Positions 1 through 42,926 of a stretch of DNA of 64,000 nucleotides are shown one piece after another. The stretch's first letter is position 1, and each line of letters starts with the position of its first letter. Position numbers and translations under genes: made by a program. Origin of the DNA: an uncultured virus (IMG/VR IMGVR_UViG_3300035208_001228) (taxonomy: Duplodnaviria > Heunggongvirae > Uroviricota > Caudoviricetes); IMG/VR virus record IMGVR_UViG_3300035208_001228. One strand, 5' to 3'. The notes beneath the pieces are model-generated. The model did no database searches, was not told the DNA's origin, and was given only the letters and a program-made list of their open reading frames with translations.

Positions 1-518
1 CTGCGCTTGACCGGATGGCCGGCGGGCTCTGCGCCTTGACCGGATGGCCGGCGGGCTCTGCGCTTGACCGGATGGCCGGCGGGCTCTGCGCCTTGACCGA
101 TGGTCGGCGGGCTCTGGCCGGCGGGCTCTGCGCCTTGACCGATGGTCGGCGGGCTCTGGCCGGCGGGCTCTGCCGATGGTCGGCGGGCTCTGCGCCTTGA
201 CCGATGGTCGGCGGGCTCTGCCGATGGCCGGCGGGCTCTGCGCCTTGACCGATGGTCGGCGGGCTCTGGCCGGCGGGCTCTGCCGATGGCCGGCGGGCTC
301 TGCGCCTTGACCGATGGTCGGCGGGCTCTGGCCGGCGGGCTCTGCGCCTTGACCGATGGCCGGCGGGCTCTGCCGATGGTCGGCGGGCTCTGCGCCTTGA
401 CCGATGGTCGGCGGGCTCTGCGCCTTGACCGATCGTCCGGCGGGCTCTGCCGATGGTCGGCGGGCTCTGCCGATGGTCGGCGGGCTCTGCGCCTTGACCG
501 ATCGTCCGGCGGGCTCTG
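1..518. repeat. Composite GC-rich tandem repeat, ~22 copies of CGGCGGGCTCTG with linkers of ~2, 8 or 16-17 nt; runs off the window start
   Basis: Read directly; long linker contains the palindrome GACCGATGGTC; ORFs over it are repeat translations. Confidence 0.95.
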
Positions 519-637
519 GTCGATCGGCGCAACCCGCAGAGCCGGCGCAACCAGCCGAAAGACTGAGCGACGGCCATCCACCATAACCGGGACGAAAATT
601 CGACTCAGGACAAAAATCAGAATTTCCGGTTTCCAAT

Positions 638-666
638 TTGACTAACCGTTCACAGTGGTGTATACT
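638..666 (+). promoter_or_regulatory. sigma70-type promoter, family member 1
   Basis: TTGACT-aaccgttcacagtggtg(17)-TATACT, then AGGAG SD before ATG 685. Confidence 0.85.
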
Positions 667-684
667 TGAAGTTAGGAGATACTC

Positions 685-1476
685 ATGCCGAATTTGCATC
701 AATGCTTGACCTGGAAAGACAACCACGATTGGGGCGGAAAAGTCGATACGCCCGATGGGCCTTACTACCATCACAAGCATGGTAGCAAGGTGCTCGGCGT
801 CGCCCATCTTGATACCGTGATGAGCGCGCGGCCGATCAAAGACGGCAAGTTTGTCTGCTGCCCGCAGCTTGACGACAGACTCGGCGTCTATTGCTTGCTG
901 GATTGGTTGCCCCGTATGGGCATTCAACTTGACGTGTTGTTGACGACGGGCGAGGAGCACTGCCGCAGCACGGCCGCGCACTTCCAGGGTGAATACAACT
1001 GGATTGCCGAATTCGATCGCGCCGGCAACGACGTAGTATTCTACCAATATCACGACGATTTCGCGCCGTGGTGGTCGGGCCGAATCGGACATGGCAGCTA
1101 TTCCGACATCGTAGATATGGAAGCACTAGGAGTCTGCGCCGTTAATATCGGGATCGGCTATCAGTTTCAGCATACGATGGAATGCTATGCCGATCTGCGA
1201 GAAACAGAAAAGCAACTGAAGCGATTCGGGAAATTCTTTGACCGCTACTGTGAAACCCGGTTCCCGTTCACGCCGCCGGTCTACGTGGACGATTGGAAAC
1301 CGCGCCGAAAGCACAAGCGAAAGCACAAGCGCGCTCTTGTCGAGTTGCCGCCGCGCAGTGAATCCGGCCATTGGTGGAATGAGCGCGACGAGTTCGAGTA
1401 CGACCCGTGGCGCAAGTCTAACGAAGAGTGGCAGAACTGGGACGAACTTGCCAAGCTGCACAACGAGTTTAACTAA
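685..1476 (+). CDS. Zn-dependent exopeptidase (M28/M20-like)
   Basis: AHLDTV, LDDRLG, GEE, EFDR and late His metal ligands. Confidence 0.7.
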   Translation: MPNLHQCLTWKDNHDWGGKVDTPDGPYYHHKHGSKVLGVAHLDTVMSARPIKDGKFVCCPQLDDRLGVYCLLDWLPRMGIQLDVLLTTGEEHCRSTAAHFQGEYNWIAEFDRAGNDVVFYQYHDDFAPWWSGRIGHGSYSDIVDMEALGVCAVNIGIGYQFQHTMECYADLRETEKQLKRFGKFFDRYCETRFPFTPPVYVDDWKPRRKHKRKHKRALVELPPRSESGHWWNERDEFEYDPWRKSNEEWQNWDELAKLHNEFN

Positions 1477-1653
1477 TCATGGACATCAAACGATATGCTT
1501 CACGTGGAATGGCCGAACGAATGGGCGCAATGCGGCAGAGCGCGGCGAGTGCTCACAAGTCGCAATGGTGCGACCGGTTGACGGTGGCATGTATGGTCCA
1601 GTGGTCGGCGGGCTACCGCGTCTAACAGGACACAAATTCGGCTCAGGTGAAAC

Positions 1654-1857
1654 ATGCCCAACAACCCCGTATGCCAATGCTGCAAGGGCGACCGGTTTGT
1701 AGAGGTCACGCTGCGCGACTTGTCAGGCAAACAGCGCGACGGCTGCGGGGTGCAGTACGCTGTAGCTTGCGAGATGTGCAACGGCAAGGGATACACCACG
1801 CAAGAGGACCACGATCGGTATCTTCGCAGTGTCGGCTGGTTGGACGGCGAGCGATAA
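1654..1857 (+). CDS. Small Zn-finger protein (CxxCxG x2)
   Basis: CQCCKGD...CEMCNGKG; bounded exactly by two intergenic elements. Confidence 0.7.
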   Translation: MPNNPVCQCCKGDRFVEVTLRDLSGKQRDGCGVQYAVACEMCNGKGYTTQEDHDRYLRSVGWLDGER

Positions 1858-1885
1858 CAAGACAAGAATTCGGCTCAGGTGAAAC

Positions 1886-2095
1886 ATGGCGTGCCCTAAA
1901 TGCGACTTGACGAATCGACCACTGGCCAGCGCCGGTCTAATGAGCTATCGTTGACGCAGTCCGTCCGGCGGGTGGACAATGATCGGCGCGCATGACCCTG
2001 CCGAAGCGTACAAAGAGGCGTTGCGCAGCGACTCAGGCGCGCAACAAGATGATTTAGAAGTTTGGAATGGGCGCCAGTATGTAAGTTGCAGGTAA
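1886..2095 (+). pseudogene. Small phage protein with in-frame TGA at 1952
   Basis: MACPKC...MSYR*RSPSGGWTMIGA...WNGRQYVSCR; frame runs on to the TAA of the next element. Confidence 0.6.
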
Positions 2096-2124
2096 CACAG
2101 AGCAAATTCGGCTCAGGAGAAATC

Positions 2125-2413
2125 ATGGCCCGACCACGCGAAGCAACCGCCGCGCGTGACTGATAGCAGACGACGCCGAAGGGCTTGCTATTCGCCACGT
2201 GACCATTGCATCAAGTTACCACGGCACTACCAGCACAAGATCGGTATTTGCCACGAGATGGCCCACGCAATCGTGCCGAGCGCGTTCGCATGGCATAGCC
2301 CGCGGTTCGCTACGCTGGTTGCGGAACTGTAGGACCGTTACGCCGGCGTGCCTAGCAAAGACAGCCGAATTCTCGGTGCCAATCTTGCACCTCGCCGCGT
2401 TCGATTCGTGTAA
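2125..2413 (+). pseudogene. Decayed zincin (HExxH, SprT-like) protein
   Basis: ICHEMAHAIVPSAFAWHSPRF..EL*DRY; TAG at 2330, 5' frameshifts; ends at element TAA. Confidence 0.55.
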
Positions 2414-2530
2414 CAAGACAAGAATTCGGCTCAGGTGAAACATGGAGCAGTTGCTTGCCAAGCACCCGAAAGCATTTTGTGACAAAAAAGGAAACGGCGT
2501 TTGGCCATGCTTAACACCTCAGGAGCAATC

Positions 2531-3055
2531 ATGCTGACATTCAAGAAAACAACCCGTGGCATGCACGAAGTGGATGACGGCTCCAAGTGGCTGGTAAGAG
2601 AAGCGCCCGTCTCTCTGCCCTGTACGCTGATCGGGCATAATTGCCACATCAAGGGCAAGACGGTCGATGTGCCTTGCGCTGAGTTGACCTTGCTACGTGC
2701 CTACGATTGCGGGATACGTGACGCGGGAAGCCATAGCAGGTGGTCAAGCAACGTGCGATATATCGTCTACGAATGGAAACCGACCTACGGGTGGCCGTCT
2801 ATCGTGATTGTCACCGACTGCGGAGGCGGCCCGTGTTATTGGACGGTTGACCAACTCGACTTCTACAACACGTGGGTTGCTCTGGCTGGCGTCATCGACG
2901 ACGCGACGGCGTGGGACTTGCTATCTGCCCTCACTGGCACGTATGACAAGGGATTCGGTGAAGGAAGTAAGAAGATGAGCACGTTGTTCCTGCAAGGCCG
3001 GTTGAAGCGGCGGAAGCGGCAGGGCGCGCACCACTTGGAAATTCTTCCTTCGTGA
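2531..3055 (+). CDS. Hypothetical protein
   Basis: AGGAG SD before ATG 2531; 174 aa ORF. Confidence 0.65.
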   Translation: MLTFKKTTRGMHEVDDGSKWLVREAPVSLPCTLIGHNCHIKGKTVDVPCAELTLLRAYDCGIRDAGSHSRWSSNVRYIVYEWKPTYGWPSIVIVTDCGGGPCYWTVDQLDFYNTWVALAGVIDDATAWDLLSALTGTYDKGFGEGSKKMSTLFLQGRLKRRKRQGAHHLEILPS

Positions 3056-3058
3056 AAC

Positions 3059-3086
3059 TTGACAACCATCCACAGTGGTGTATAAT
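3059..3086 (+). promoter_or_regulatory. sigma70-type promoter, family member 2
   Basis: TTGACA-accatccacagtggtg(16)-TATAAT. Confidence 0.85.
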
Positions 3087-3441
3087 TGAGTATTGGCACA
3101 TGAGGAGGAATTGCGTAGCACCTTCGGGGCTTGTTTGTGTGAAGTCAAAACAATTCTCAGGAGCAACAATGTCTTGTCTTGAAAAATGGTTGAGTCTGCC
3201 ACCGGGTGCGCTTGTCTCTTTCGACCGAGTGGCAGCCGTGAAGTTGGCCGATTGCGGCGTAGGAGAAGAAACATGATACGTGGTCCGCCTTAGCCGCAAC
3301 CCGCAAGCAAACGCGGATTGACTCAGAGAGAAAGACAGCCAGAGAGAACATAGCTTCCTATACCGCTGACCACGAAAGGGCGGCACCATGACACGCAAGT
3401 AAAACCTTGCAACCGGGCCACCGACTACCACCGCGATCTGA

Positions 3442-3470
3442 TTTCAGAACCGTTCGCAGTGGTGTATCAC
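3442..3470 (+). promoter_or_regulatory. Degenerate member 3 of the promoter family
   Basis: tttcag-aaccgttcgcagtggtg-tatcac; core conserved, -35/-10 weak. Confidence 0.55.
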
Positions 3471-3878
3471 AACAGCGGGAGACAACAATGACAGCGGCAA
3501 CACTTTAGAGCGCTTGCGGAGGAGATTGCCAAGATTGGCAGCCACGCCGCGAGGAGGAAAGCGGCTGCCGCTGTCATTGCCGCGTGTGCGCGATTCAACC
3601 GGAACTTCAACACCGTTCAGTTCTGGAGGGCTTGCAACCTATGAATGATAAACAACGATTGAGACTTCGCTTTCTCGCCATCGCCGACCAGTTGCAGGCG
3701 TGTATCCGGGACGGCCGCGAGTTTGGCGAGGGCTACAAACAACTCGTCAAACTAGGCCGCGATCTGCGCCTCATTAACAAGGCGGGAAGATGACCTATCG
3801 CGCAGTCTATTGGACGCCGGCGTCGTGCTATGGCGTGGAGGAAATACCCGGATGACCATTCCCGAACGAGGTGACAGT

Positions 3879-4166
3879 ATGAATCATGTGAAAGCCGCCT
3901 ATGAAAATGGGCGTTGTCCCGACTGCGGGGAAGACATTCCCGAGGATGTCATGCACGGTCAAGCGTGTTCCAATTGCGAACACGTCTTCTTCGACGCTTG
4001 CGCCCGTTGCGGCAACGTATTGCAAGACAACGGCTTGTGTTCTGACGAAGCGTGTCCCTTCTCTGACCATTTTCAGGGCTGCCCGGCCGGATGGGCCGGC
4101 CACCCGGAACTGGGAGCCGGGCCATGCACTTGTCTAGCCGAACTCGTCTCGGGAGGGGTCCAATGA
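3879..4166 (+). CDS. Cys-rich Zn-ribbon protein
   Basis: CPDCG, CSNC, CARCG; GAGGTG SD. Confidence 0.6.
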   Translation: MNHVKAAYENGRCPDCGEDIPEDVMHGQACSNCEHVFFDACARCGNVLQDNGLCSDEACPFSDHFQGCPAGWAGHPELGAGPCTCLAELVSGGVQ

Positions 4167-4456
4167 AACCGACACCCCACGACGAATTCATCCAGTGCGG
4201 AATCCTGCCCAATGTTGTGGCCAGCACCTGTCTAAACTCGCGTGGCCACACTTTGACAGCGGGCCAAGCTGATTGGTTTATTAAACACGTCGATACGCGG
4301 GTTCGATGGTTGCACGCTAACAATGTGCGATGGCGGCGGTCGTTGGACCGTGGCGACCGCGATCAACTTTACGTGTGGGTCCACCACTGGCTTGAGGCGT
4401 ATTTGCGCGGCCCGGTCACATACCAAGAGCGACACCCAATGGAGGCAATGCAATGA
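4163..4456 (+). CDS. Hypothetical protein
   Basis: GGAGG SD, ATGA overlap. Confidence 0.6.
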   Translation: MKPTPHDEFIQCGILPNVVASTCLNSRGHTLTAGQADWFIKHVDTRVRWLHANNVRWRRSLDRGDRDQLYVWVHHWLEAYLRGPVTYQERHPMEAMQ

Positions 4457-4707
4457 TCGAATGCCTGGAAGACTTTGCGGCACAATGGGGCGCAGACCCG
4501 TGCTACGTGCGAGAACCGAACCTGCCCGGCGACGGGTATCTGTTCTACAACTTCGCTGCCGAACAAGACGACCCGGAGTTCCGGCGGACGTTCATTCCTG
4601 CAATCGAACGGACCATCGAATTCGCCAAGCTGAAGTGCGAGCCCGCAGACGTGGACGACTTGCAAGAGTTTCTCGGCCGCGTCAGAGAAATGGAGCAAAC
4701 ATCGTGA
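4453..4707 (+). CDS. Acidic hypothetical protein
   Basis: GGAGG SD, ATGA overlap. Confidence 0.6.
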   Translation: MIECLEDFAAQWGADPCYVREPNLPGDGYLFYNFAAEQDDPEFRRTFIPAIERTIEFAKLKCEPADVDDLQEFLGRVREMEQTS

Positions 4708-4874
4708 GCAAGACAAAGACAAACCTTTGACTATTGAAATCCAGTATGGCGTGCGCGATGGACCGACTCACGGGAACCGCGTTGTCGATTGACGACCACG
4801 GCGAATACGGCAAGCCAAAGGTGGGCAAGTTCTTTGCCCTGAAACAACAGCAGAATTTGGCTAAGGAGAAATCT

Positions 4875-5114
4875 ATGGACATTGAAACATTGGTCAACAA
4901 GTTATGCGACCCAGTTGACTTTGCTGAGACGTATTGCGGGTGGGACTCTTCAGACTATTACGAGGAGTGTTTGCCGGACAGTGCCGGCGGTTGGATACCC
5001 GCCGACGGGTCCGACCGGTCAATTCACGACGCTGCAATGGACGCGGTACGGGAATGGGCGTCGGAAACAGCGGCCAATCTGGAAACACTTCGTGACGCCG
5101 TACAAGCATTCTAA
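4875..5114 (+). CDS. Very acidic small protein
   Basis: Bounded by two intergenic elements; D/E-rich. Confidence 0.65.
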   Translation: MDIETLVNKLCDPVDFAETYCGWDSSDYYEECLPDSAGGWIPADGSDRSIHDAAMDAVREWASETAANLETLRDAVQAF

Positions 5115-5296
5115 CAACGGCAGCATTCGGCTAAGGAGAAAACGCGATGAAACTCGACATCAGAATTGACTTAGCCAATGTGGCGTTCGGTGACGTGTCC
5201 GGCGTCGAGACAGCACGAATCCCGCGGCGGCAACGAAAGAAGCGGGTGCGGGTCGAGCGGCGTAACAACGACGGAAATTGACTCAGGAGAAACCAC

Positions 5297-5824
5297 GTGA
5301 GCGACAAACCCGACAACGAGCAATTGACCGAGATTCTCAAGCATCTGCCCGGCTGGCGCAACAATGAGCGGTACGCCTACTCCCATTGGTGCAGCGGGAT
5401 CACTGATGACGCCGGCCACGACGTGTCGGTCGAGTTGTATCTAGGACGGTTGCGATTCGTCGGACACTTTCCCGGACAAGGGGACGAATCGCAGACCATC
5501 TCCGTCAGCGCGAGCCGCTCGGCCGAGGAGATTACCGCAGATTTCCGGCGTCGGTTCCTGCCCGGATACCTGGAACAATGGACCGTAGCAAGGGCCCGCG
5601 CGGACAAGCAACAAGAATTCAAGATCGGCACGGAGACGACTTGGCGGAAGCTGTCGCAACTGCCCGGCATGAGGGCGTTGCAGCACGACAAGACGCTATA
5701 TGGTCCGAACTGTAGTTACATCAATGTCCAGGGACCGGACAGCGTGCGGGTCGAACTACGCGGGAATCTGAATGTTCGCCAAGTCAAACGGCTCATTGCG
5801 ATGCTCAACAGGGCAACAAAATGA
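5297..5824 (+). CDS. Hypothetical protein
   Basis: GTG after element SD; 175 aa. Confidence 0.65.
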   Translation: MSDKPDNEQLTEILKHLPGWRNNERYAYSHWCSGITDDAGHDVSVELYLGRLRFVGHFPGQGDESQTISVSASRSAEEITADFRRRFLPGYLEQWTVARARADKQQEFKIGTETTWRKLSQLPGMRALQHDKTLYGPNCSYINVQGPDSVRVELRGNLNVRQVKRLIAMLNRATK

Positions 5825-6511
5825 CTCAGGTGAAATTGCCGCGCCAGGACGTTGCGTATGCCGCCGCGATGGACGCCGCCAATCGACGTATGCGAGCCGA
5901 GGGTAGAACAACGTGGAATCAAGAAGACTACGCCGCAGCAGTAGCGGCCTACAACACAATAATCGAAGAAGCCAAAGGGGACTGTTGAATGACTCACACT
6001 ACTCAAGAAAGCATCACAATGAATCCTGCCGAGTTACCGTTTAACGAGATTATCGAGCACCAACAAGGCGACCGCGTGGTATGCCGAATTATGCGGGACG
6101 GCTGGGAAGTCGGCACGTGGGCCGAAGCTGGGTGGGACGGTGCGGGGCCAATCGCGCGGAAAATCCTGGCGGTGAATGACCTATTCGAGTGCCTGGATAA
6201 CACGGCGGCAGCACTTGAAACAATGCTGGCCCATCACACCATGCCGGAGGGAGACCGCGTTTCACGGCAACGAGTGCTTGACGCTGCCCGCCAATTTCAA
6301 CTCTTACAAGAAGAAAGCACAATGACAAAAGCAAGCCTCATACGACGCTTGAGGGCGATCGAACGAAACGTCGTACAGGCACAGTGCGATCTCGCTGGCG
6401 GGCGTGCAAAGCGATGCTTGAAACAGGCACATTTGCAGACGTTGCGGACAATCGCCGCTGCAAGAAGGTCACACCAGGAGAAACACCAGGAGAAACACCA
6501 GGAGAAACACC

Positions 6512-6894
6512 ATGCAGGCATTGAACAAGACATCAGAAGCTGTCTTTTACAGGTTGACTGAGGGCTGATGAGGGTCGGCGACCATCGGAAGCACGACAAC
6601 AACAGCGCCTTCATGGCGGTTTGCGTGGAAATTGTCGGGCAGACTGATCGTGGTCTGCTAATCAGTGTCGCGCATTACTACGCGCAGAATGGCGACATGA
6701 TGCGTGACCCCGACGTGGTCTTCCTCGTTGACGAGCACGCCTACCCGATTTCCTATCGGCAGGATGGTCTGGGAGTCAACCGGGAAGCGGCGTGCATTGA
6801 AGACGGGGTGTGGAAAGTCTACCCAAAGATGCAGGCGGACATTTGTCGGTTCTGCAACCAATGGATGCGGAACATCAAGGCGCAGCAGTTCTAA
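6512..6894 (+). pseudogene. DUF6908-like protein, frameshift near 6562
   Basis: SVAHYYAQNGDMMRDPDVVF...WMRNIKAQ; N-terminus MQALNK in another frame. Confidence 0.6.
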
Positions 6895-7248
6895 CAAGAC
6901 GCAAATTTGGCTCGGGAGAAATCAATGATTCAAGTGCGAGTAGGCGACGCCGGTGAACTGGAAACGCCGTGTCTGCTGTGGCGGCGTTGTTCTACGCAGC
7001 TACTCACAGTTCGGAAACCTTGACTAACCTGGCGTCATCCACGCTGACTGGCGTAGGCATGGCGATCGGTGGCTGCCTTGGAAGTGCATTGATTCTGCGC
7101 TTCAAGTCTGCTCGCCAGTACATTCGTGCTGTTCTCAAAGATTTGCAATAACTGACGGCGATCGGGCCTGCTTTGCAGGGAACTCGTACCCCGTCTGGTA
7201 ATCGCCGTCAGTCTTATCCTTTTCCTTTAGCGCCCGAGGTATGCGCCC

Positions 7249-8334
7249 ATGTCTACCGTTTTCGTTGAATTGACTGTTGTTGACGACGTAAGGCCACATC
7301 CGAACGCCGACAAGCTGGAAATTGTTGTCATCCGTGGGGTCACAACGATTGCCGGCAAGGGCGAGTTCTCTAAGGGCCAGCGCGTTGTCTATTTCCCGCC
7401 TGACATCCTTCTTCCCCCAGATATGAGTTTGATGCTTGGAGTACAGAAGTACCTCAAGCACGCGGAATGGCCTGGTGATTCCAGTCATCCTGTTGGCAAG
7501 TGCCAATGCCGGGTGGCCGGATGCCGATTACGTGGTGAACCCAGTTATGGATTCATCATTCCTGCGCCATCCATTTTGGATAACCATGCCATTGGGTCTG
7601 ACGTATCCGTGATGTGGGCAGCCCAGAAATACGAGCCTCCGGTTCGCTATTTCTATGGTGATCTCGCTCCCGAGGACAATCGGTTCCACAAGTACACGGA
7701 CATTGAGCACTACTGGCGTTTCAACGAAGCCATTGCTGAGGGCACGCTGGTTCGGATCACTGAGAAGATTCACGGCACCAATTCGCGCGTGGGCCTGGTA
7801 ATGAAGAACGGCGGGTTCGAGTTCATGGCCGGAAGCCATCGGACAAGACGGAAAAAGCCAGAGGGTGAAAGCACTTCAATCTACTGGCGTCCGCTCGAAG
7901 ACGAAGGCATCCTGAACCTGTTATCGCATTTGTGCGACGAACAGAACTCCGTCATCGTCTTTGGAGAAATCTACGGTGCCGGAATCCAAGACATGGATTA
8001 CGGTGCAAAGGATGGCTACCGAGTTTTCGACATCAGCGTCAACGGCAAGTACCTGGATTGGGACGCCGTGAAGGACTCCTGCCGAATGTTCGATGTCGAG
8101 ATGGTGCCAGTCCTCTATGAGGGTCCATTCACCAACGATTTGGTGAAACAGTTCACTTACGGCCCAACCACCTTGGCCGAACCTGGTCAAATCAAGAGCA
8201 GTTTCAAGGACCGCGAAGGTTGTGTTATCACTCCTCAGATCGAGCAGCCCTACGCACCGACAGGCGGACGCCTGATCCTCAAGAGCGTGTCGGCTGACTA
8301 TCTCGATCGGAAAGGTGCTCAGGACAACGAATGA
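7249..8334 (+). CDS. RNA ligase, DRB0094/Rnl5-like
   Basis: HPNADKLE OB domain, TEKIHGTN, FGEIYG, REGCVI, ILKSVS. Confidence 0.88.
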   Translation: MSTVFVELTVVDDVRPHPNADKLEIVVIRGVTTIAGKGEFSKGQRVVYFPPDILLPPDMSLMLGVQKYLKHAEWPGDSSHPVGKCQCRVAGCRLRGEPSYGFIIPAPSILDNHAIGSDVSVMWAAQKYEPPVRYFYGDLAPEDNRFHKYTDIEHYWRFNEAIAEGTLVRITEKIHGTNSRVGLVMKNGGFEFMAGSHRTRRKKPEGESTSIYWRPLEDEGILNLLSHLCDEQNSVIVFGEIYGAGIQDMDYGAKDGYRVFDISVNGKYLDWDAVKDSCRMFDVEMVPVLYEGPFTNDLVKQFTYGPTTLAEPGQIKSSFKDREGCVITPQIEQPYAPTGGRLILKSVSADYLDRKGAQDNE

Positions 8335-8639
8335 CGCTTGATCTGATCCTTGATGCCATTGTCAACGAGAGGCAATATCAGGCCCGCCGTTGGGGAACCC
8401 GTCATGGCCTCAATCGCTTTGAGGAAACTCAGCGATCGGTCCCCGACTTTCTCGTCTACATGAAGACTTACCTGGATGACGCATTTCGGAGCGCTACTAC
8501 CGAGGTTGGCGATGACAAGGCTCTTGAGGCTTTGCGGAAGGTCGTCGCCCTCGGGGTAGCCTGCTTCGAGCAGCATGGTATGCCCGTGCGTGATCCGAAC
8601 ACACGTTGCGTCAACGCACGAGATGGGATGGTTGCATGA
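8331..8639 (+). CDS. Small MazG-like all-alpha protein
   Basis: ERQYQ...LRKVVALGVACFEQHG. Confidence 0.45.
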   Translation: MTLDLILDAIVNERQYQARRWGTRHGLNRFEETQRSVPDFLVYMKTYLDDAFRSATTEVGDDKALEALRKVVALGVACFEQHGMPVRDPNTRCVNARDGMVA

Positions 8640-9150
8640 ACAAACTGATCTTTCTGGATATGGATGGGGTGATTGTCAATTTGCAGGACGCTGTGCAACA
8701 GATGCACGGATTCGATGTCAACAGCGCCTTCCATCGCCACGAATTGGGGATGACCCAAGAACAACTCTGGGGCCAGACGGACGCCAACTGGTGGGCCGGT
8801 CTGCCGTGGATGGAGGATGGTCGGGCGATCCTAGCTCTTTGCGAGGACACTGTGGGAGTCGAAAACGTCATCATCTGTACGACGCCGGCCGAGTGGCCAG
8901 GCGCTGCGGAAGGGAAATTGCGATGGATCGAGCAGCAGATGCCAAACTATGCCCGTCGCTTCGTGCTGACGCCGGATAAGTCATGGTGTGCCAATGGGCG
9001 AACCTTGTTGATTGATGACAGTGCCCATGTGATTGATGCCTTTCATTCAGCAGGCGGGGCGACACTACTTTGCCCCGGCCGTGGAATGCAATGCACTTCC
9101 ATGAGGCCGTGAACTTTTTGCGATTTGGGATCGCGGAGATGCTTATATGA
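8636..9150 (+). pseudogene. HAD 5'(3')-deoxyribonucleotidase-like, frameshift near 9072
   Basis: FLDMDGV, GKLRWI, LLIDD; expected PRPWN tail is in another frame. Confidence 0.7.
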
Positions 9151-9659
9151 ACTACGTCATCTGCTATGCCCATCCTCATTGGGAGGTTTACCCCACTGAT
9201 ATTCTCTTGATTCGGAAGAACAGACCGGATTGGCAGGCTGGCAGATACAACCTACCTGGCGGCAAGATCGAGGATGGCGAGACGATCCACGAAGCCGCTT
9301 CCCGCGAACTGTTTGAGGAAACGAACATCAAGGCCCATCATGTCCGAATCATAGGCACGATTGAGGCTGACAACTGCATCGTTTACGTCTGCGAATGTAC
9401 GTTTGACGCAAACGAAGAAGCAGCCACGATGACTGATGAGATGGTGTTCTGGATGGACGTAGGTGATGCTCTACGCGATCCCTTACTCCTAGACAGTCTT
9501 CGTGTCGCAATTCCATTCTGCTTCACACAATTGTCTTGCTGGCACATTCGCCAGCAGACGGAACGATTCTCTACTGCTACCAGTTCACAAATCACTTTTG
9601 AGGAAGTCCATGCGAAAATCGACGTACCTAAGTCATTCTTCTTTGGCCCTGTGGGCTAA
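9147..9659 (+). CDS. NUDIX hydrolase
   Basis: GGKIEDGETIHEAASRELFEET Nudix box. Confidence 0.9.
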   Translation: MNYVICYAHPHWEVYPTDILLIRKNRPDWQAGRYNLPGGKIEDGETIHEAASRELFEETNIKAHHVRIIGTIEADNCIVYVCECTFDANEEAATMTDEMVFWMDVGDALRDPLLLDSLRVAIPFCFTQLSCWHIRQQTERFSTATSSQITFEEVHAKIDVPKSFFFGPVG

Positions 9660-10120
9660 AGACAAAGAGGAGTTCTACATCAAGCACCTGGCCGAAACTC
9701 GCGCCGAGAATCGCCCAGGAAGTCTATATGTCTGTGAGTGGTAGTTTTGACGCCTACGTTAAGGCAGCCCTGCATGAACGCCTCTTTGGTAAGGGTGCTG
9801 ATCCCCAATTCGAGTTCAACACGATCTTCGAGAAGCAGGTTGAACCCCAGAACCGTGACTTCGCCTTGGAAGCCGGCAAGTACATCATGGCTTGCTACGT
9901 GATGACGGGTGCCTTCGAGGAACTTCTGGCCATGCTGGAAAAGTCCAAGGAGACGCCTCGATTCGAGTTCGAGGTTCATGGGGACATCATGGGTGTGCCG
10001 TTCGTGGGCAAGCCTGATTGCCGCTTCGTACACGAATGCGGACCCCATGTGATTCTCGATTGGAAGGTCAAGGGCTTCTGCTCGAAGTACGGAGCAAGTC
10101 CGTCGAAGAATTACCGGCTC
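9610..10120 (+). pseudogene. Truncated, frameshifted PD-(D/E)XK nuclease, paralog of 31563-32549
   Basis: LSHSSL..EFYIK..FDAYVK..QVEPQNRD..GKPD..DWKV; cut off at the element at 10116. Confidence 0.8.
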
Positions 10121-10131
10121 GGGAGAAATCC

Positions 10132-10932
10132 ATGTACATCCAACTGACCACCCGCTGCAACATGGAATGCCAGCACTGTGCCATTGACTGTGGTCCCGTG
10201 GGCGAGGACATGCCGGAGGACATCTTCGACAAGGCGCTTGTGCTTGGGCAGATTTACGACGGCACGGTTACTCTTGGTGGCGGTGAGCCGACCATCCATC
10301 CCGTGTTCCCGATGTTTTTGCTCAAGGCGATAATTAAATGCTCCGGCAGGCTGTGCGTCACCACTAACGGCAAGGATGAAGGTCCAGTACGGTTCCTACT
10401 AAAGTATGCTGAACGGAGACAGGTCTTTGCCCGGCTATCACTCGATTCGTTCCATGACCCTATCAACCCGGACATCGTGGCGGCGTTCAAGGCGTTGCCG
10501 CCGATGTTCAAGTTTCGTGAAGGCGACCAGCACATTACCCCGCCTCCAGACACGATAGCCAACTACTCCCCGATCGGCCGCGAGCTACGCCGCCGTGGTC
10601 TGACGGAAACTCCGGCGAACGCGCATTGCGTCTGCCCCGGCCCGTTCATTGCACCGAATGGTGACATACGGCAGTGCGGTTGTACGGACCACGTTGTTGG
10701 GCACGTTGTTGGGCACGTTGTTGGGCACGTTGACGATGTTCTCGGCATCGTCGGCACGCTGCCCTGGCCTTGCTCGCGTCGAAGTCCGATCAGGATGATA
10801 ACAAGACCGAATTTTGGCTCACGAGAAATTGAAGAAACCAAGAGTCGCTGGTACACTGAGGGCTATGCAACGACTGATCGAAAGTATCGTTGCCATCGAA
10901 ATCAACGAGTGGCGGCTGACCGCCGTGCATAG
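10132..10932 (+). CDS. Radical SAM protein (3' end probably frameshifted near 10799)
   Basis: CNMECQHC, LGGGEPTIHP, VTTNG, SLD. Confidence 0.85.
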   Translation: MYIQLTTRCNMECQHCAIDCGPVGEDMPEDIFDKALVLGQIYDGTVTLGGGEPTIHPVFPMFLLKAIIKCSGRLCVTTNGKDEGPVRFLLKYAERRQVFARLSLDSFHDPINPDIVAAFKALPPMFKFREGDQHITPPPDTIANYSPIGRELRRRGLTETPANAHCVCPGPFIAPNGDIRQCGCTDHVVGHVVGHVVGHVDDVLGIVGTLPWPCSRRSPIRMITRPNFGSREIEETKSRWYTEGYATTDRKYRCHRNQRVAADRRA

Positions 10933-10941
10933 GAGAATGCT

Positions 10942-11178
10942 ATGAAGTTCAAATTGCTTGTAGACTGCAAGGATCGTGCCACGCTCGATGCGGCGCTTTC
11001 AAAGTGTGTAAAGCATTGTTTCAAGACAGCTACTGTCATCGAGCGTGTCGCGGTGGGTGACTTTACGACACAAGAGTATAGGCAAGCACCGGCCGGCGTC
11101 GGGCCGTTGGCGGCGGTGTGGGATGCTACTCCGCGCAAACTGATCTTCGATCTTTGCGACCGATTGGAGGAGAGGTGA
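10942..11178 (+). CDS. Hypothetical protein
   Basis: AGGAG SD. Confidence 0.5.
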   Translation: MKFKLLVDCKDRATLDAALSKCVKHCFKTATVIERVAVGDFTTQEYRQAPAGVGPLAAVWDATPRKLIFDLCDRLEER

Positions 11179-11355
11179 AGGTTGTTCATCGAGACGATGG
11201 TTGGTGGGTCACGGAGATTCATCCTGAATCTAATGACATCGGCCCCTACACCAAGGATGAGGCGGAAAGCCACCGTCGTTGCTTACAGAAGACACTTGCC
11301 AATTTGGAGAATAGGGCATTCTTCACTTGTGAGAAAATAATCTCGCCGTCCCCGC

Positions 11356-11383
11356 TTGACAACCGTCCGCAGTGATGTATGAT
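11356..11383 (+). promoter_or_regulatory. sigma70-type promoter of the cas12 gene, family member 4
   Basis: TTGACA-accgtccgcagtgatg(16)-TATGAT, GGAG SD, GTG 11409. Confidence 0.85.
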
Positions 11384-11408
11384 TGAGTAGCACCATTGGA
11401 GACACAAC

Positions 11409-13280
11409 GTGACAATTAAGGTCTACAACTACTACATTGTTGGCCAGCCGTCGAATCTGGACGCCTTGAACAAGGTCTTGGCTACGGGCAGCGCGATGTG
11501 GGACGCTCTGGTAACTGCGTTGGATGACTATCGACGGGGATTGTGCGATTTCGCCTGGTCCGTAAACGAAGAGGGTCTCCAAGCTGCAAGCAAGGCGATT
11601 GTGGACACCTACGCCCCACTATACATGGCGCGGACGGCAGCCAAGAAAGCGGCCGTCGAGCGTAAGCGTCGGGCTGCAACATCCGACGCGCCTGCCATCA
11701 AGAGGTTGGAAACAGCGTACGACGCAGCGATTAAGCGGTTCTGGCAACTTCGGAAACAGGCCGTTAGTAGCCAACGCAAGAACGACAAAGACGTATTACA
11801 GGCGGACCCGGAATGGAACACGCTCACCGACCTATTGAGTCGGCGACCAAAGAATGAGAGCAACAACAACCGGGTGAAGAAACAACTGCGTGCAAGCATC
11901 GCCGAACGCGAGCGAGCACTGTTGGCCAAGACGCCTGCAATCCTCGACTTGGACTATGTCGCGCAGAAGAAAGCGGCAAGCAGCCGATACCGGACGCAAC
12001 TTCGGTCAGGTTTCCGTGGGGAGATCATCAAGAACTTCGACACAGCGTCGAAGGCGGGCAAGGTCTACACGAAGGACGGCGAGGGAATCGACTTCTATTA
12101 CGAGAGGACGCAAGATGGGGTGTCCAATGCCCAGTTCAGCGTGTCCGCCTTCGACGTGCCTGTTGATCTTTGCGAACAGTTTACCAACAAGAAGCGGACT
12201 ATCAAAGCGCAGATGCGTCTCGGTCCCGGCAATGTCACGGAGTTTGTCTTCAAACAGCACCGCCCGCTCCCGGCGGATGCGAAGATCGCGGGCATCCGAC
12301 TGTGCCGTGACCGCGTCGGGCATCGCATCAATTGGTCAATTCAGTTCACCATACACACGGCAGACTGCTATGAACCAGCCCAGAATACAGACGAAGTCGG
12401 CTTCGACTTTGGCTGGCGTCGCAAACCCGACGGTAGCCTGCGTGTTGCGTATTGGTCCAGCCGAATTGACGCAGGTGAGATCGCCATCCCCGCGCACGTC
12501 CTTTCCAAGCGTGCTCATCTTCAGGACATCAAGTCTGTGAGCGACAAGTGCTTCAACGAGATGCTTGCCAGCGTCCGTTCCTTTGCGGCAGCAAACGCAG
12601 TCCCAGAGTGGCTAGTGGAGGAGTTGAAGATGAGCGCGGCATGGCACAGCCACGTACGCTTAACCCAGCTTGCCGAGTTATGGGAGACACGTCGATTCGA
12701 GGGTGACTCGGACATCTACTATCGACTGAATGGGGACAGCAAGAAACATGCGATCACGAAGACGGCCGCTGGAAAGACAACGACGCATCATGGCTATGTT
12801 GGCTGGGTCGCTCGTGATCGGCATTTTCAGACATGGTTCGCCGAGGGGACGCGCAAGCTGATTCGTTGGCGAAAGCAGTTCTACGCTGGGACGGCGAAGA
12901 CGTTCTGCGACCGTTTTGGCGTCGTGAAGTTCGAGGATACCGAGATTCCTGATCTCTGCCGACGTGCCCCGGTCGAGGATCGCAGTAATGAGGGGATACT
13001 GAAGATGTGGGCTTTCGCCTCGCCCGGCGAGTTGCGTGACGCATTCCAATCACGTGCCAACGTCTTCCAGAGGGTCTCGGCACCGTACACAACGCAAGTC
13101 TGTCAGCATTGCCAGGCCATCGTCAAGTTCGGTGCGCCTTTGGTGGCGACGTGCCCCGGATGCGGCGAAGTCCTGGACCAGGACCAGAACGCATCCGTTA
13201 ATGTTCGTGACTCCAAAAACATCACTGCAACCTTCGTTCGTGGGTCAGGTCAGAAACAGAAAAAGAAGCGGTTTGACTAG
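11409..13280 (+). CDS. cas12: Type V CRISPR effector, Cas12m(V-U1)-like / TnpB-derived, 623 aa
   Basis: HRPLPADAKI..RVG, RuvC-I VGFDFGWR, RuvC-II KFED, CQHC/CPGC Zn finger, RuvC-III DQDQNAS; array adjacent. Subtype assigned from remembered motifs only. Confidence 0.85.
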   Translation: MTIKVYNYYIVGQPSNLDALNKVLATGSAMWDALVTALDDYRRGLCDFAWSVNEEGLQAASKAIVDTYAPLYMARTAAKKAAVERKRRAATSDAPAIKRLETAYDAAIKRFWQLRKQAVSSQRKNDKDVLQADPEWNTLTDLLSRRPKNESNNNRVKKQLRASIAERERALLAKTPAILDLDYVAQKKAASSRYRTQLRSGFRGEIIKNFDTASKAGKVYTKDGEGIDFYYERTQDGVSNAQFSVSAFDVPVDLCEQFTNKKRTIKAQMRLGPGNVTEFVFKQHRPLPADAKIAGIRLCRDRVGHRINWSIQFTIHTADCYEPAQNTDEVGFDFGWRRKPDGSLRVAYWSSRIDAGEIAIPAHVLSKRAHLQDIKSVSDKCFNEMLASVRSFAAANAVPEWLVEELKMSAAWHSHVRLTQLAELWETRRFEGDSDIYYRLNGDSKKHAITKTAAGKTTTHHGYVGWVARDRHFQTWFAEGTRKLIRWRKQFYAGTAKTFCDRFGVVKFEDTEIPDLCRRAPVEDRSNEGILKMWAFASPGELRDAFQSRANVFQRVSAPYTTQVCQHCQAIVKFGAPLVATCPGCGEVLDQDQNASVNVRDSKNITATFVRGSGQKQKKKRFD

Positions 13281-13379
13281 AAAATGGCGGCAGAGCCGAA
13301 AGAATCGGTCGCTATTCCCCAGTTTCCAGCCGGAAGTTTGCCCCTAACGTCCGCGTGTGTAATGAGTTAGGACAGACGG

Positions 13380-13793
13380 GGTGTGAAGCAGGTGCGGCTG
13401 CTGCCGATCCGCAACAACCCTTCGCAGTGATGTAAACTTATATTGGGTGTGAAGCAGGTGCGGCTGCTGCCGATCCGCAACAACGGATTCGGTATGTCAC
13501 CCGGCGGTGTGAAGCAGGTGCGGCTGCTGCCGATCCGCAACCCATGCTTAATGACTTGGGGTGTGAAGCAGGTGCGGCTGCTGCCGATCCGCAACTCAGT
13601 GCTAGTGCTAGGCGCGGGTTGCGCCGGTGTGAAGCAGGTGCGGCTGCTGCCGATCCGCAACCCATGCTTGGATCGTTCATCGCGTCTAAGTGGTGTGAAG
13701 CAGGTGCGGCTGCTGCCGATCCGCAACTTGTTGTCGAGACGAGAAAGGTTCCATCATGGTGTGAAGCAGGTGCGGCTGCTGCCGATCCGCAAC
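13380..13793 (+). CRISPR. CRISPR array: 7 identical 36-nt repeats GGTGTGAAGCAGGTGCGGCTGCTGCCGATCCGCAAC, 6 spacers (30, 24, 18, 30, 30, 30 nt)
   Basis: Repeats start at 13380, 13446, 13506, 13560, 13626, 13692, 13758; 99-nt leader after the cas12 stop. Confidence 0.98.
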
Positions 13794-14017
13794 TGAGCGT
13801 CCGGGATGTGGCGGAACGGCTGGAGGTCAACCAGAGCAAGGTGCTGGGTTGGATCGCTTATGGCCGGTTGAAGGCGTCGAACGTGGCCAAGGGTGGCGCA
13901 TCCGCGAAGAGGCTTGCTTTGAAGGACTTTCTAACTGGTCGTGCAGGCCCCTCCCCAGCAGACGCTTCATTGAGACGCCGACAGCATCCGGCGGATCGGT
14001 TAAAATCCAAGCCCTGA
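13793..14017 (+). pseudogene. Headless excisionase-like HTH abutting the last CRISPR repeat
   Basis: LSVRDVAERLEVNQSKVLGWIAYGRLKASNVA, homologous to 17677-18042. Confidence 0.7.
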
Positions 14018-14332
14018 AATTTGAACCAGCCTAGTAGCGTTAAAATACGGTGGCAAGAATTTGAATGATGAGTGGGATAGAATTACCTGCAAGTTCTCGT
14101 AGATGCAGGGTTTGAAAGGGCCGACGATGAACCGCATTTCTCTCTTAGCGGCTGTCAAGAACGCTATCGACCGCCTGTACCTCTCAGTGCTACGTTGGAA
14201 TCATTGTCTGAGGTACGTGACCATCTCGATGTGCTAATTGACGCTGTCGAGTGTGACCTGAAAGAGGATGCCGACTAGCGTCGGTACTTACTGACAAGTC
14301 CCGACGTTTTGGCACAACATGAGAAAAGAACA

Positions 14333-14506
14333 ATGATTCCGGGCGACAAATTTGGACAATTGACTGTGCTAGCGGCTCCCTATCGCGTAGTAAATACGTG
14401 CAATTACAAGGTTAGAGTTCGTTGCGATTGCGGCACGACAGTGTTGTGTGGCTGCCACAGTCGCAGGTTGTTCATTCAACGTAACAAAGCACGCCAGATT
14501 GAATAG
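14333..14506 (+). pseudogene. N-terminal fragment of an HNH/AP2-type endonuclease
   Basis: GDKFGQLTVL...RCDCG. Confidence 0.5.
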
Positions 14507-14563
14507 TCTAGTGGACCGGCGGCAGCAGTCTCGGCGTGTTAAGCACAATCGACGCTGCTGCGA

Positions 14564-15460
14564 TTAGGCAGATCGACGCGATGTATCAACCGCCTGTTCC
14601 ACTGCTTTCTGAAGATGTGCCGCGCGTCGCTGCAAATGGGCGTAGCATTGATGCACCATTTTAAGGCTAGAATGCCCGAGCAGGGTGCAAAGCGTGATCG
14701 GATCGACGCCTCTTTCAAGCGCGTTCGTCGTAAAAGTGTGCCTCAATGAATACGCCGTGACCGGAAAGCCGACCCGTTTCGCCAGCCGCTCAAAGCGGCC
14801 GACCAAAGCAGCGGTGCTCCACCCTTTGCCACGAGAATTTCGGAATAGTGGTCCCTCGGGTCTTTTCAGAGCGAGTCTTCTGCAAATCTCGTAGACTCGA
14901 CTGGATAGATGCACCACACGCGGCACCCCACCCTTCCCGCGGGCGAACGACCAACACATCCCGTCCAGGTTCTTGGCCGTGACCAGTCTTGCCTCTTGGG
15001 GCCGGCAGCCAGTCTCATGTAGGGCAACGAGCAGGTCGAGGAGATCAGCCGGACAATAATCCATCAACCGAGTAATCTGCTCGGTTGTTAGGTAGACATC
15101 GTCGCCCCGCCTTGTGGCGGCAGGCAGCTTCAGGTTGCGCAGGGGCGAGACGTTGATGTAGCCTTGCTCCTCGCACCACTTGAAGCAGGTCTTGGCCGCT
15201 CGCATTGCGTTGCGACAGCCCGTGGCGTGGAAGGGCCGGAGATCGCTGATGGGCATGTCGGGCAGCCCCTTGAGAGACTGCGTGTAGAAGCTGAGATTCC
15301 CTGGGCTCATGGGGCGGGCGAGGAATTGTTGGACAGCTTGCCCAACAGTTTGCAGGGTGCCCCCGAGGGCAGCCTGGGCCTTCGTCTCGGTCGTTCCGAG
15401 GCGGACGGCCTTCCCGTGCCGATTGACGTACCAAGCATGATGTGATTTCTTGTAGTACAT
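14564..15460 (-). CDS. int: Tyrosine recombinase/integrase 1 (probably leaderless)
   Basis: TGCRPQE, K, YSLRHTF, LLGH, Y; ATG 7 nt after the -10 box. Confidence 0.92.
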   Translation of the reverse strand: MYYKKSHHAWYVNRHGKAVRLGTTETKAQAALGGTLQTVGQAVQQFLARPMSPGNLSFYTQSLKGLPDMPISDLRPFHATGCRNAMRAAKTCFKWCEEQGYINVSPLRNLKLPAATRRGDDVYLTTEQITRLMDYCPADLLDLLVALHETGCRPQEARLVTAKNLDGMCWSFARGKGGVPRVVHLSSRVYEICRRLALKRPEGPLFRNSRGKGWSTAALVGRFERLAKRVGFPVTAYSLRHTFTTNALERGVDPITLCTLLGHSSLKMVHQCYAHLQRRAAHLQKAVEQAVDTSRRSA

Positions 15461-15466
15461 ACTACA

Positions 15467-15495
15467 ATCATACATCACTGCGAACGGTTTGTCAA
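15467..15495 (-). promoter_or_regulatory. sigma70-type promoter of integrase 1, family member 5
   Basis: TTGACA-aaccgttcgcagtgatg(17)-TATGAT on the - strand. Confidence 0.85.
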
Positions 15496-15998
15496 GCCGA
15501 TTCTTTAAGGGATTGTCTCATTTTCAATACGGCCCGATGGGCGCGACTTTGCAGCGCCGCGTATGACATCCCCAGTTTAGCCGCAGCAGTGTCGAGACCA
15601 AGATCGTCGAGGTACACCGCTTCGATCGCCTCACGTTCCTTGTCGTTAAGCACGCGCATCCCGCGTGCGAGCAGCGTGGCTTGGTCGAGACGCGAGAGGA
15701 CGTTACAGTCAACAAGACCGTACTCATCCACACGATCTGTTGGCCCATCGCCATTCGAGCCGAGCGAGTGGGTTCCTCGGCCAGCTTCCATCTTGTTCAC
15801 GTTGCGGTGAAGGTTGACTGCCGCCGTGTACAGGAACGCACGGACATCACGGATCGGGTTCGGGTAGTCGATCAGTTTCACGAAGACTTCTTGGACGATG
15901 TCCTCGGCGCAGTGGCAGTTGCGATTCACGAGGAAGGCCACCAGCATGTCGTAATACTCAGCGTACATGGCGCGCAGATCGAGCGTAGACGTAGCCAT
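15492..15998 (-). CDS. ECF-type sigma factor
   Basis: AEDIVQEVFVKL..AFLYTAAVN (region 2); LNDKEREAI..AAKLGMS..QSRAHRA (region 4). Confidence 0.88.
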   Translation of the reverse strand: MATSTLDLRAMYAEYYDMLVAFLVNRNCHCAEDIVQEVFVKLIDYPNPIRDVRAFLYTAAVNLHRNVNKMEAGRGTHSLGSNGDGPTDRVDEYGLVDCNVLSRLDQATLLARGMRVLNDKEREAIEAVYLDDLGLDTAAAKLGMSYAALQSRAHRAVLKMRQSLKESA

Positions 15999-38982: not shown

Positions 38983-39144
38983 GGAAAGCCTCTCGGAGAA
39001 GTTGCTCCACTGCGGAGGGTTGCTCCACTGCGGAGGGTTGCCGACGTTCAACAAGGAACGGCCTGGAATAGGCAACCAAGCCGATGTTGGCTGCGGCTCG
39101 CTCTACCCACTCAGCCGGAATGATCTCGATGTAGTGCATACAAG

Positions 39145-40206: not shown

Positions 40207-40649
40207 GCACAGATGGGGGTGAAGCCGTACTTCTCGCAAAGACGGTAGGGATAAACAGGACCACGCGGGTCGAAGATCGTTCCGCGTTCGTAAGCCACAG
40301 CGTGTCCGGCCGCGTTTGTGTGTCCGGTAATGACGCCGCGTGTGCGTTCAACAATCCGCCGGAACCTCGCCATTGCCGCTTCCTCGCTCCCACCGTACAC
40401 AATGGTGTACGATGGAACGGTGAAGGCAGGGGCGTGGCGAGGGAACATCTCGAATGGCGTCACCGCACAGCCGCCCCGGCTCGCCGCATCAATGCACTCT
40501 TGGACGTGGAAACCTCGGCGTCGCATCGGGTCTTTCAGCGTTGGCCAGATGATTTCACTGCCGTCGTGGCCAATGTGTTTGATGAAGTCAGCGACATCTA
40601 TGCCAAGAACTATTGCAAAGGCAGTAGGTAAGCACGACCAATTGTTCAT
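40191..40649 (-). CDS. Papain-like/C39-like peptidase
   Basis: WSCLPTAFA, GHAVAY, IFDP. Confidence 0.5.
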   Translation of the reverse strand: MNNWSCLPTAFAIVLGIDVADFIKHIGHDGSEIIWPTLKDPMRRRGFHVQECIDAASRGGCAVTPFEMFPRHAPAFTVPSYTIVYGGSEEAAMARFRRIVERTRGVITGHTNAAGHAVAYERGTIFDPRGPVYPYRLCEKYGFTPICAWSIT

Positions 40650-42924: not shown

Positions 42925-42926
42925 TC

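Follow-up and report, generated by a model that had tools for sequence, protein, structure and literature searches.

We analyzed a stretch of 64,000 nucleotides (nt) from an uncultured caudoviricete (IMG/VR record IMGVR_UViG_3300035208_001228), referred to below as the window, in which a cas12m-like gene, a leader, and a CRISPR array lie one behind the other, ahead of a tyrosine integrase gene on the opposite strand. The first spacer of the array closely resembles a promoter family of the carrier phage itself, including the promoters of cas12m and of the integrase gene. Positions are those of the window, position 1 being its first letter, and all searches for self-matches cover its 64 kb. The window has a G+C content of 56.5% and is of phage origin: among 94 crude open reading frames (ORFs), PHROG and Pfam scans identified DNA polymerase, primase, helicase, and exonucleases, together with two ligases and DNA methyltransferases; five HNH endonucleases, two tyrosine integrases, a head maturation protease, and an extracytoplasmic function (ECF)-type sigma factor were also recognized. 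Because the cas12m protein cluster occurs on contigs of up to 95 kb, and a 79-kb contig of the Joint Genome Institute carries a 21.9-kb stretch identical to the window, about 15 to 31 kb of the phage should lie beyond the window.

The cas12m-like gene (11409 to 13280, + strand) starts with GTG, preceded by GGAGA, and encodes a protein of 623 residues with a RuvC triad (D333/E509/D592) and a zinc ribbon of the CxxC...CxxC type. The triad residues and the four zinc cysteines (C565, C568, C582, and C585) are invariant in a six-sequence alignment, and Pfam recognizes a Cas12f1-like TNB zinc ribbon (PF07282, E value of 2.3e-07). Among PDB chains, the protein matched 23vw (7.6e-19), 23vu (5.5e-13), and Cas12m2 (3.5e-4), with TnpB reaching only 4.6e-3. 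A full HMMER search returned 2518 relatives at an E value of ≤0.001, the nearest being 29% identical, and the Cas12m-like genes matched in tblastn showed 23 to 27% identity. The AlphaFold2 model has a mean predicted local distance difference test score of 82.7 and a predicted template modeling (TM) score of 0.80; Foldseek ranks 1 to 4 are all Cas12m2 and GoCas12m structures (E values of 1.4e-24 to 7.3e-18, TM scores of 0.56 to 0.67, best 8hhl at 1.4e-24), and the next matches are Cas12f at about 1e-10. The product is a divergent member of the Cas12m family. Like the type V-M proteins MmCas12m2, GoCas12m, MsCas12m, and PmCas12m, it has about 600 residues, a RuvC domain, and a zinc ribbon, finds its best sequence and fold matches in Cas12m structures, and is accompanied by no visible adaptation genes, as neither cas1 nor cas2 was seen among the ORFs scanned in the window; unlike them, it is carried by a phage, and its nearest relative is at most 29% identical. 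The D-E-D triad is intact, and members of the family with this triad likewise bind DNA without cutting it, according to the accessible part of the report of Bigelyte et al. (PMC11013384). By analogy, the present protein probably also binds DNA without cutting.

The CRISPR array (13380 to 13793, +) consists of seven identical 36-nt repeats and six spacers (13416 to 13445, 13482 to 13505, 13542 to 13559, 13596 to 13625, 13662 to 13691, and 13728 to 13757) of 30, 24, 18, 30, 30, and 30 nt, respectively. It is separated from cas12m by a leader (13281 to 13379, +) in which no terminator-like site was called, and the window holds no copies of the repeat beyond these seven. The repeat aligns, on the same strand, with the repeats behind two other Cas12m-like genes, one on a plasmid of Allomeiothermus (formerly Meiothermus) silvanus, which is presumably the MsCas12m of Bigelyte et al., and one, unannotated, in Virus Rctr197k (KX853510.1). 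A two-helix pseudoknot fits all six aligned repeats, with 97.9% of the cells paired compared with 76.1 ± 4.8% in shuffles (0/500 attained the value), 6/8 pairs varying on both sides, and slid controls at 21 to 50%; the structure was drawn from the same six repeats, so that these controls are somewhat flattering. Some of the pairs are G-U, which form on the + strand only and therefore support the reading of this strand. All aligned repeats end in AC, as in the A(-2)C(-1) of Cas12m2, and the helix adjoining the 3′ end of the repeat matches the Cas12m2 scaffold, so that the 36-nt length, the pseudoknot, and the AC end are all shared with type V-M Cas12m (PMC10442227). In Virus Rctr197k, the degenerate repeats stand at the array end distant from the Cas12m-like gene. 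The array is read from the + strand, and spacer 1 is therefore adjacent to the leader, with its matching 5′ end proximal to the protospacer-adjacent motif (PAM). The first-pass annotation had described the locus as a Cas12m-like CRISPR system, which is borne out by the sequence matches, the fold, the RuvC and zinc residues, and the co-oriented array; expression of the array from the opposite strand, which it had raised as an objection, is unlikely in view of the repeat pseudoknot, its G-U pairs, and the AC ends.

Two further features of the array may be recorded here. Spacers 3 (13542 to 13559, 18 nt) and 5 (13662 to 13691, 30 nt) share their first 8 nt, CCATGCTT, a score attained by 7/500 shuffles, and the lengths of the repeat-spacer units (66, 60, and 54 nt) are all divisible by 3, with several frames open across the array.

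Spacer 1 (13416 to 13445, +) lies where the earlier annotation had placed it, with the sequence quoted there, and is a further copy of an element that recurs in the promoters of the phage. Counting guide positions 1 to 30 from its 5′ (PAM-proximal) end, the first 19 nt find five matches with ≤3 mismatches (four genomic sites plus the spacer itself), compared with a mean of 0.02 in 100 shuffles, and a fifth genomic match, at 3064, has 4 mismatches in 19 nt. The integrase promoter (15467 to 15495, - strand; TTGACA, 17 nt, TATGAT) matches in 18/19 positions at 15471 to 15489, with rC:dC at position 5 as its only mismatch. The cas12m promoter (11356 to 11383, +; TTGACA, 16 nt, TATGAT) matches in 17/19 positions at 11361 to 11379, between its -35 and -10 boxes, with rC:dC at 5 and an rU:dG wobble at 7. 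The copy at 3448 to 3466 (+) likewise matches in 17/19 positions, with rC:dC at 5 and rA:dC at 15. The promoter at 638 to 666 (+; TTGACT, 17 nt, TATACT) follows with 16/19, or 20/24, at 644 to 662 (rC:dC at 5, a wobble at 9, and rA:dC at 15), and the promoter at 3059 to 3086 (+; TTGACA, 16 nt, TATAAT, 12/12 consensus) with 15/19 at 3064 to 3082 (rC:dT at 5, wobbles at 7 and 9, and rA:dC at 15). The counts of 18/19, 17/19, 17/19, and 20/24 and the weaker match at 3064 (15/19) in the first-pass annotation were thus reproduced. It had further spoken of five promoters; four are indeed of consensus grade and are the best four sigma-70-type promoters in the first 20 kb (12, 11, 11, and 10 of 12 consensus positions in a promoter scan), but the copy at 3448 has no recognizable -35 box and was not called by the scan.

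The conserved element takes up the interval that separates the -35 box from the -10 box, with the latter as its anchor. In a weight matrix made from the five sites, these score 34 to 40 bits and spacer 1 scores 27.8 bits, with 18.9 bits for the next site (40391) and shuffle maxima of 8.7 to 12.6 bits; the 14-nt core, AACCNTYCRCAGTG, occurs eight times in the window compared with 0.01 expected. The promoter element is clearly under constraint, and because the sequence just outside it is unconserved, this suggests that the element is read by some trans-acting factor. Two of the core occurrences go beyond the list of the first-pass annotation and lie upstream of a DNA ligase gene, in a perfect 18-bp tandem (39001 to 39041, - strand; 2.3 copies; AACCCTCCGCAGTG...; flanks GGC and AGC) between an upstream ORF and the GAGAGG ribosome-binding site and in-frame ATG (38982) of the ligase. 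These copies carry C at position 5, the same as spacer 1, and pair with the guide at positions 1 to 14 with one rU:dG wobble, positions 15 and 16 being mismatched. Spacers 2 to 6 show no significant similarity to the promoter family and no self-match with ≤2 mismatches in the first 16 nt in the window. The similarity of the leader to the family is weak and marginal (2/300 shuffles attain the score) and is not relied upon. As separate observations, the site at 40391 to 40415 (+) is a weaker look-alike of the element (18.9 bits versus a shuffle maximum of 12.6) that has no -35 box and lies inside - strand genes, and if a long ORF from 39075 is real, the tandem at 39001 to 39041 would encode NPPQWS twice.

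Past position 19, the similarity drops, positions 20 to 30 matching in 3 to 6 of 11 cases, as the first-pass annotation had noted. The heteroduplex of Cas12m2 has 17 bp, with guide bases 18 to 20 unpaired (PMC10442227); GoCas12m reads 18 bp, as far as the available text of its report goes (PMC11013384), and a 17-nt guide is the optimum for PmCas12m in the accessible part of a preprint (bioRxiv 10.64898/2026.03.26.714355). With a duplex of 17 to 18 bp, the 19 matching bases span the whole functional guide, and the drop behind them is therefore not partial pairing in the sense first meant. Spacer positions 18 to 30 resemble the -10 region (TAAACTT...) of another member of the family, one that is absent from the window.

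Position 5 is mismatched at all five promoter copies (rC:dC in four, rC:dT in one). The promoter copies vary among themselves at positions 7, 9, and 15, where the base of the guide also occurs in the family; where the guide misfits at 7 or 9, the pair is a G:U/G:T wobble. As to the flanks, TTG stands 2 to 3 nt upstream of four sites (8-nt flanks ATTTGACT, AACTTGAC, CGCTTGAC, and GCTTGACA; the fifth flank is GATTTCAG), and TTN or YTN is found at -3 to -1 in 0/5 sites, in agreement with the earlier remark that the immediate flank is not a clean TTN PAM. The five flanks (ACT at 644, GAC at 3064, CAG at 3448, GAC at the cas12m promoter, and ACA at the integrase promoter) share no common motif and fall into two registers, owing to the promoter spacing of 16 or 17 nt. 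The sites that resemble guide 1 thus differ from the targets of characterized Cas12m proteins, for which the accessible texts report T/C-rich PAMs, TTN or YTN (PMC11013384; bioRxiv 10.64898/2026.03.26.714355). An RRC flank (4/7 sites) was considered as a PAM and rejected, because the repeat end, AAC, would then expose the array to targeting by its own guides. The mismatch at position 5 is to be read beside PmCas12m, in which one mismatch ≤12 nt from the PAM abolished activity, according to the part of the preprint available (bioRxiv 10.64898/2026.03.26.714355).

According to the above-described analysis, we favor, with about an even chance of being right, the reading that spacer 1 is a silencing guide directed at kin phages. 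In this scheme, cas12m and the array would probably be cotranscribed from the cas12m promoter, and Cas12m would bind DNA under the guidance of CRISPR RNA (crRNA) and block transcription. Most likely, spacer 1 would be a copy of the homologous early promoter in a close relative, which is the simplest account of positions 18 to 30, since these resemble the -10 region of an absent family member. A single guide of 17 to 19 nt could then silence the multicopy early-promoter family of a rival, so that kin arriving by co-infection or superinfection would be excluded or would face competition; a multicopy early promoter would be an effective target for an effector that only binds. The promoter copies of the carrier would be spared, as none of them agrees with the guide at position 5, which belongs to the PAM-proximal part, where PmCas12m loses activity with a mismatch, and the element itself would then be maintained in another way, a protein regulator and gene conversion being examples. 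That the carrier's own locus is off by a point change, here position 5 in 5/5 promoter copies, is a trait of kin-directed virus arrays. In the accessible portion of a review (PMC11656645), V-M systems carried by mobile elements are regarded as means by which such elements compete, with binding as the way of silencing, and such systems have been noted in prophages. The first-pass annotation had offered the equivalent promoter of a competing relative as its alternative to self-repression; this fits better than the self-repressor but is not proven, no relative having been found.

Several points weigh against the kin-directed reading. A kin target may exist, but no relative and no perfect protospacer were found in IMG/VR, the GTDB genomes, or one metagenome scan. 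The first-pass annotation had proposed a search for a perfect protospacer of spacer 1, and none was found in the window, IMG/VR, or the GTDB genomes; nor does the window contain a competent target, that is, one with a perfect seed and a known Cas12m PAM. Searches of IMG/VR with the Cas12m protein and the exact repeat gave no relatives, the nearest relative (P0002) was absent from the GTDB genomes, and the sole contig from the metagenome scan, that of the Joint Genome Institute, was identical to the window. In IMG/VR, spacers 2, 4, 5, and 6 gave 0 matches each with their first 22 nt, and the whole array gave only chance-level matches to INPHARED phages (best E value, 0.01). A degenerate 19-nt motif matched six loci in IMG/VR, none in promoter context, and these were discarded as chance matches; the motif combined with a -35 box gave two matches in GTDB (an alphaproteobacterial metagenome-assembled genome [MAG] and a Gemmataceae MAG), which were likewise set aside as chance level, with no other similarity to the window.

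Three studies, of landfill and groundwater, supply the four DNA runs in which the locus is present, no RNA run being listed with it. The listed contig pieces of the four runs, 500 to 13409 and 13765 to 15700, show no differences from the window; the run contigs break inside the array, and spacer 1 lies outside the listed pieces. In the groundwater run X3, a second contig shares the integrase-promoter region 15423 to 15497, differs at 15463 and 15464, and diverges past 15497. From its sequence, it appears to be a co-occurring relative with the same promoter version, and this too speaks against a kin target, since the relative has the same sequence as the window throughout the integrase-promoter site and apparently carries the version of the phage itself. 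Furthermore, a kin promoter of the same design would share the non-T/C-rich flank (GAC or ACA), so that the PAM objection weighs equally here. The PAM and mismatch rules are taken from characterized Cas12m proteins, all <30% identical to the present one, and the mismatch data, as far as the accessible preprint text shows, come from one orthologue, PmCas12m, used as an activator fusion in human cells (bioRxiv 10.64898/2026.03.26.714355). The 15 to 31 kb of phage outside the window could also hold a perfect self-target. Finally, no CI/Cro-type repressor was recognized in a Pfam scan of 77 further ORFs of the window, which leaves the regulator of these promoters without a candidate. No Rfam family reached gathering score in the window.

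The lack of a recognized repressor bears on the reading that the first-pass annotation had placed foremost, in which the guide acts in place of a CI repressor. Here the complex of Cas12m and crRNA 1 would bind the phage's own promoters and the copies upstream of the ligase gene despite imperfect pairing, which we regard as doubtful; its proposed effect, a negative feedback on cas12m together with damping or shut-off of the early genes and the integrase, as an RNA-guided counterpart of a phage repressor, is equally tentative. No Pfam-recognizable repressor was found in the window, which favors this reading. That the core occurs eight times and, in the four strongest sigma-70-type promoters of the first 20 kb, occupies exactly the interval from the -35 to the -10 box also fits this proposal, as do the unconserved surroundings, which suggest a trans-acting reader, and the length of the matching stretch, which equals the 17- to 18-bp heteroduplex of Cas12m. 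The promoter of the system itself is among the targets, as in known crRNA-derived regulators, the misfits at 7 and 9 are wobbles, and the ligase-upstream copies have the C of the guide at position 5 and pair over positions 1 to 14 with one wobble. Self-targeting would presumably be nonlethal with an effector that only binds, and the PAM objection, as said, hits a kin promoter of the same design equally, with no kin target found in the searches.

Several points count against self-regulation. Position 5 is C:C or C:T at 5/5 promoters, and a single base change in the spacer would repair four of them, yet this change is absent; were binding to these promoters under selection, one would expect a G at this position of the guide. 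The flanks share no motif, stand in two registers, and are nowhere TTN or YTN. Known regulatory guides keep the seed and diverge distally, and spacer 1 shows the reverse. In addition, PmCas12m is intolerant of single mismatches ≤12 nt from the PAM in the preprint text available, and in Virus Rctr197k, the only other phage Cas12m array examined, 0/22 guides match their own genome (≤2 mismatches in the first 18 nt). A CI-like self-repressor therefore no longer stands as the leading interpretation, given the mismatch at position 5, the flanks that are not T/C-rich, and, within the limits of the PmCas12m source, the intolerance of that orthologue. A combined version is also conceivable but unlikely: the guide may bind its own 17- to 19-bp element weakly, tuned by the single mismatch, and thereby provide early shut-off or lysogenic repression without a protein repressor, with the same guide excluding kin that match perfectly.

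It is rather improbable that spacer 1 has no current function and no longer any competent target, being a relic of a past acquisition, with kin or the phage itself as the source, or of recombination with a promoter cassette. The absence of a target with a perfect seed and known PAM from the 64 kb, the irregular spacer lengths (30, 24, and 18 nt), the lack of cas1/cas2 among the ORFs scanned, and the lack of visible turnover, the listed contig pieces being identical in four runs of three studies, would all agree with a relic. However, seven identical repeats and an intact cas12m frame with its catalytic and zinc residues argue for a maintained system, and a leader-proximal spacer is usually a recent acquisition, which also counts against this explanation. 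Very improbable is an internal promoter, in which spacer 1 (GCAACA, 16 nt, TAAACT) would start an RNA at about the first base of repeat 2 and drive crRNAs 2 to 6: the -10-like TAAACT (13434 to 13439) does lie 6 nt before repeat 2, and at 27.8 bits the spacer is a recognizable member of the family, but the -35 position is the end of the repeat, and matches TTGACA in only 3/6 positions; the site was not called by the promoter scan, and the cas12m promoter, without an intervening terminator, already explains transcription of the array.

The kin-directed guide that we favor has a near precedent. The mini-arrays of the viruses SPV1 and SPV2 are directed at kin, with a point change setting apart the copy in the carrier itself (Medvedeva et al. 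2019, PMC6858448). The present case is similar, as a virus spacer resembles the genome of its carrier and the carrier's copy is off by a point change; it differs in that the phage brings its own effector, presumably of the binding-only type, that the presumed target is a multicopy promoter element instead of a gene, and that the kin target was not found. The crRNA-derived regulators form a second group for comparison and include tracr-L, CreR, and the regulatory mini-arrays. As in these, the guide partly matches the promoter of its own cas gene. Unlike them, spacer 1 is mismatched in the seed (rC:dC at position 5), its flank at that promoter, GAC, is no known Cas12m PAM, and it also resembles four other promoters; such regulators usually occur in degenerate stand-alone units, whereas spacer 1 sits in a regular array with perfect repeats. 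Regulatory crRNA-like guides are reported to keep the seed and the PAM and to diverge on the PAM-distal side (Shmakov et al., bioRxiv 10.1101/2023.03.03.530964).

Among phages, the closest counterparts are myxophage MV-1 and Virus Rctr197k, in both of which a Cas12m-like gene is directly followed by a co-oriented array. MvCas12m of MV-1 also has the D-E-D triad and no adaptation genes, and a 2026 preprint, in the part accessible, calls it the first case of a phage-borne Cas12m and finds no targets for the MV-1 array (bioRxiv 10.64898/2026.09.14.751636). Unlike the present array, that of Rctr197k has 0/22 guides with a self-match at the threshold given above. The resemblance between guide and own promoter is specific to the present phage among the phage Cas12m arrays checked, namely, Rctr197k and, to the extent of the available preprint text, MV-1. 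Virus Rctr197k also has a second annotated CRISPR region (KX853510.1, 119281 to 119535), beside an annotated transposase-like gene and about 7 kb from its Cas12m-like locus.

Both kinds are already known, spacers aimed at kin as well as guides with a regulatory effect on the promoter of their own cas gene; no report of a Cas12m guide resembling the promoter family of its carrier phage was found in the literature searched. Hardly any natural targets of Cas12m are known, and Cas12m on phages was reported only recently. In the present locus, one guide can be set against a defined multicopy promoter element, and a single mismatch may be what separates self from kin. The locus therefore makes two questions testable: how a binding-only effector tells self from kin, and whether such an effector has been wired into the phage's own regulation. 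If self-regulation were true, this would be, as far as the literature searched shows, the first natural CRISPR guide standing in for a phage repressor.

The integrase gene (14564 to 15460, - strand) likely starts at ATG 15460, which lies 7 nt past the -10 box, and its mRNA would therefore have almost no leader. The -35 box of the integrase promoter is preceded, 1 nt away, by the end of the ECF sigma factor gene. On the other side of the integrase gene and convergent with it, a frame at 13794 to 14017 (+) abuts the last repeat of the array and is weakly similar to excisionase-type helix-turn-helix domains (HTH_17, E value of 0.006); it has no start codon of its own before the first helix and may be a xis-like gene cut short by the array. 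At the left end of the window, G+C-rich complex tandem repeats (1 to 518; periods of 14, 28, 48, 62, 90, and 152; ≤16 copies), which contain TTGACC, stand directly upstream of the promoter at 638. In a DNA methyltransferase ORF (40939 to 42963, - strand), the methyltransferase matches are split between residues 20 to 97 and 422 to 649, and the middle matches a ribonucleotide-reductase-like PHROG, so there may be an inserted element in the middle of this ORF.

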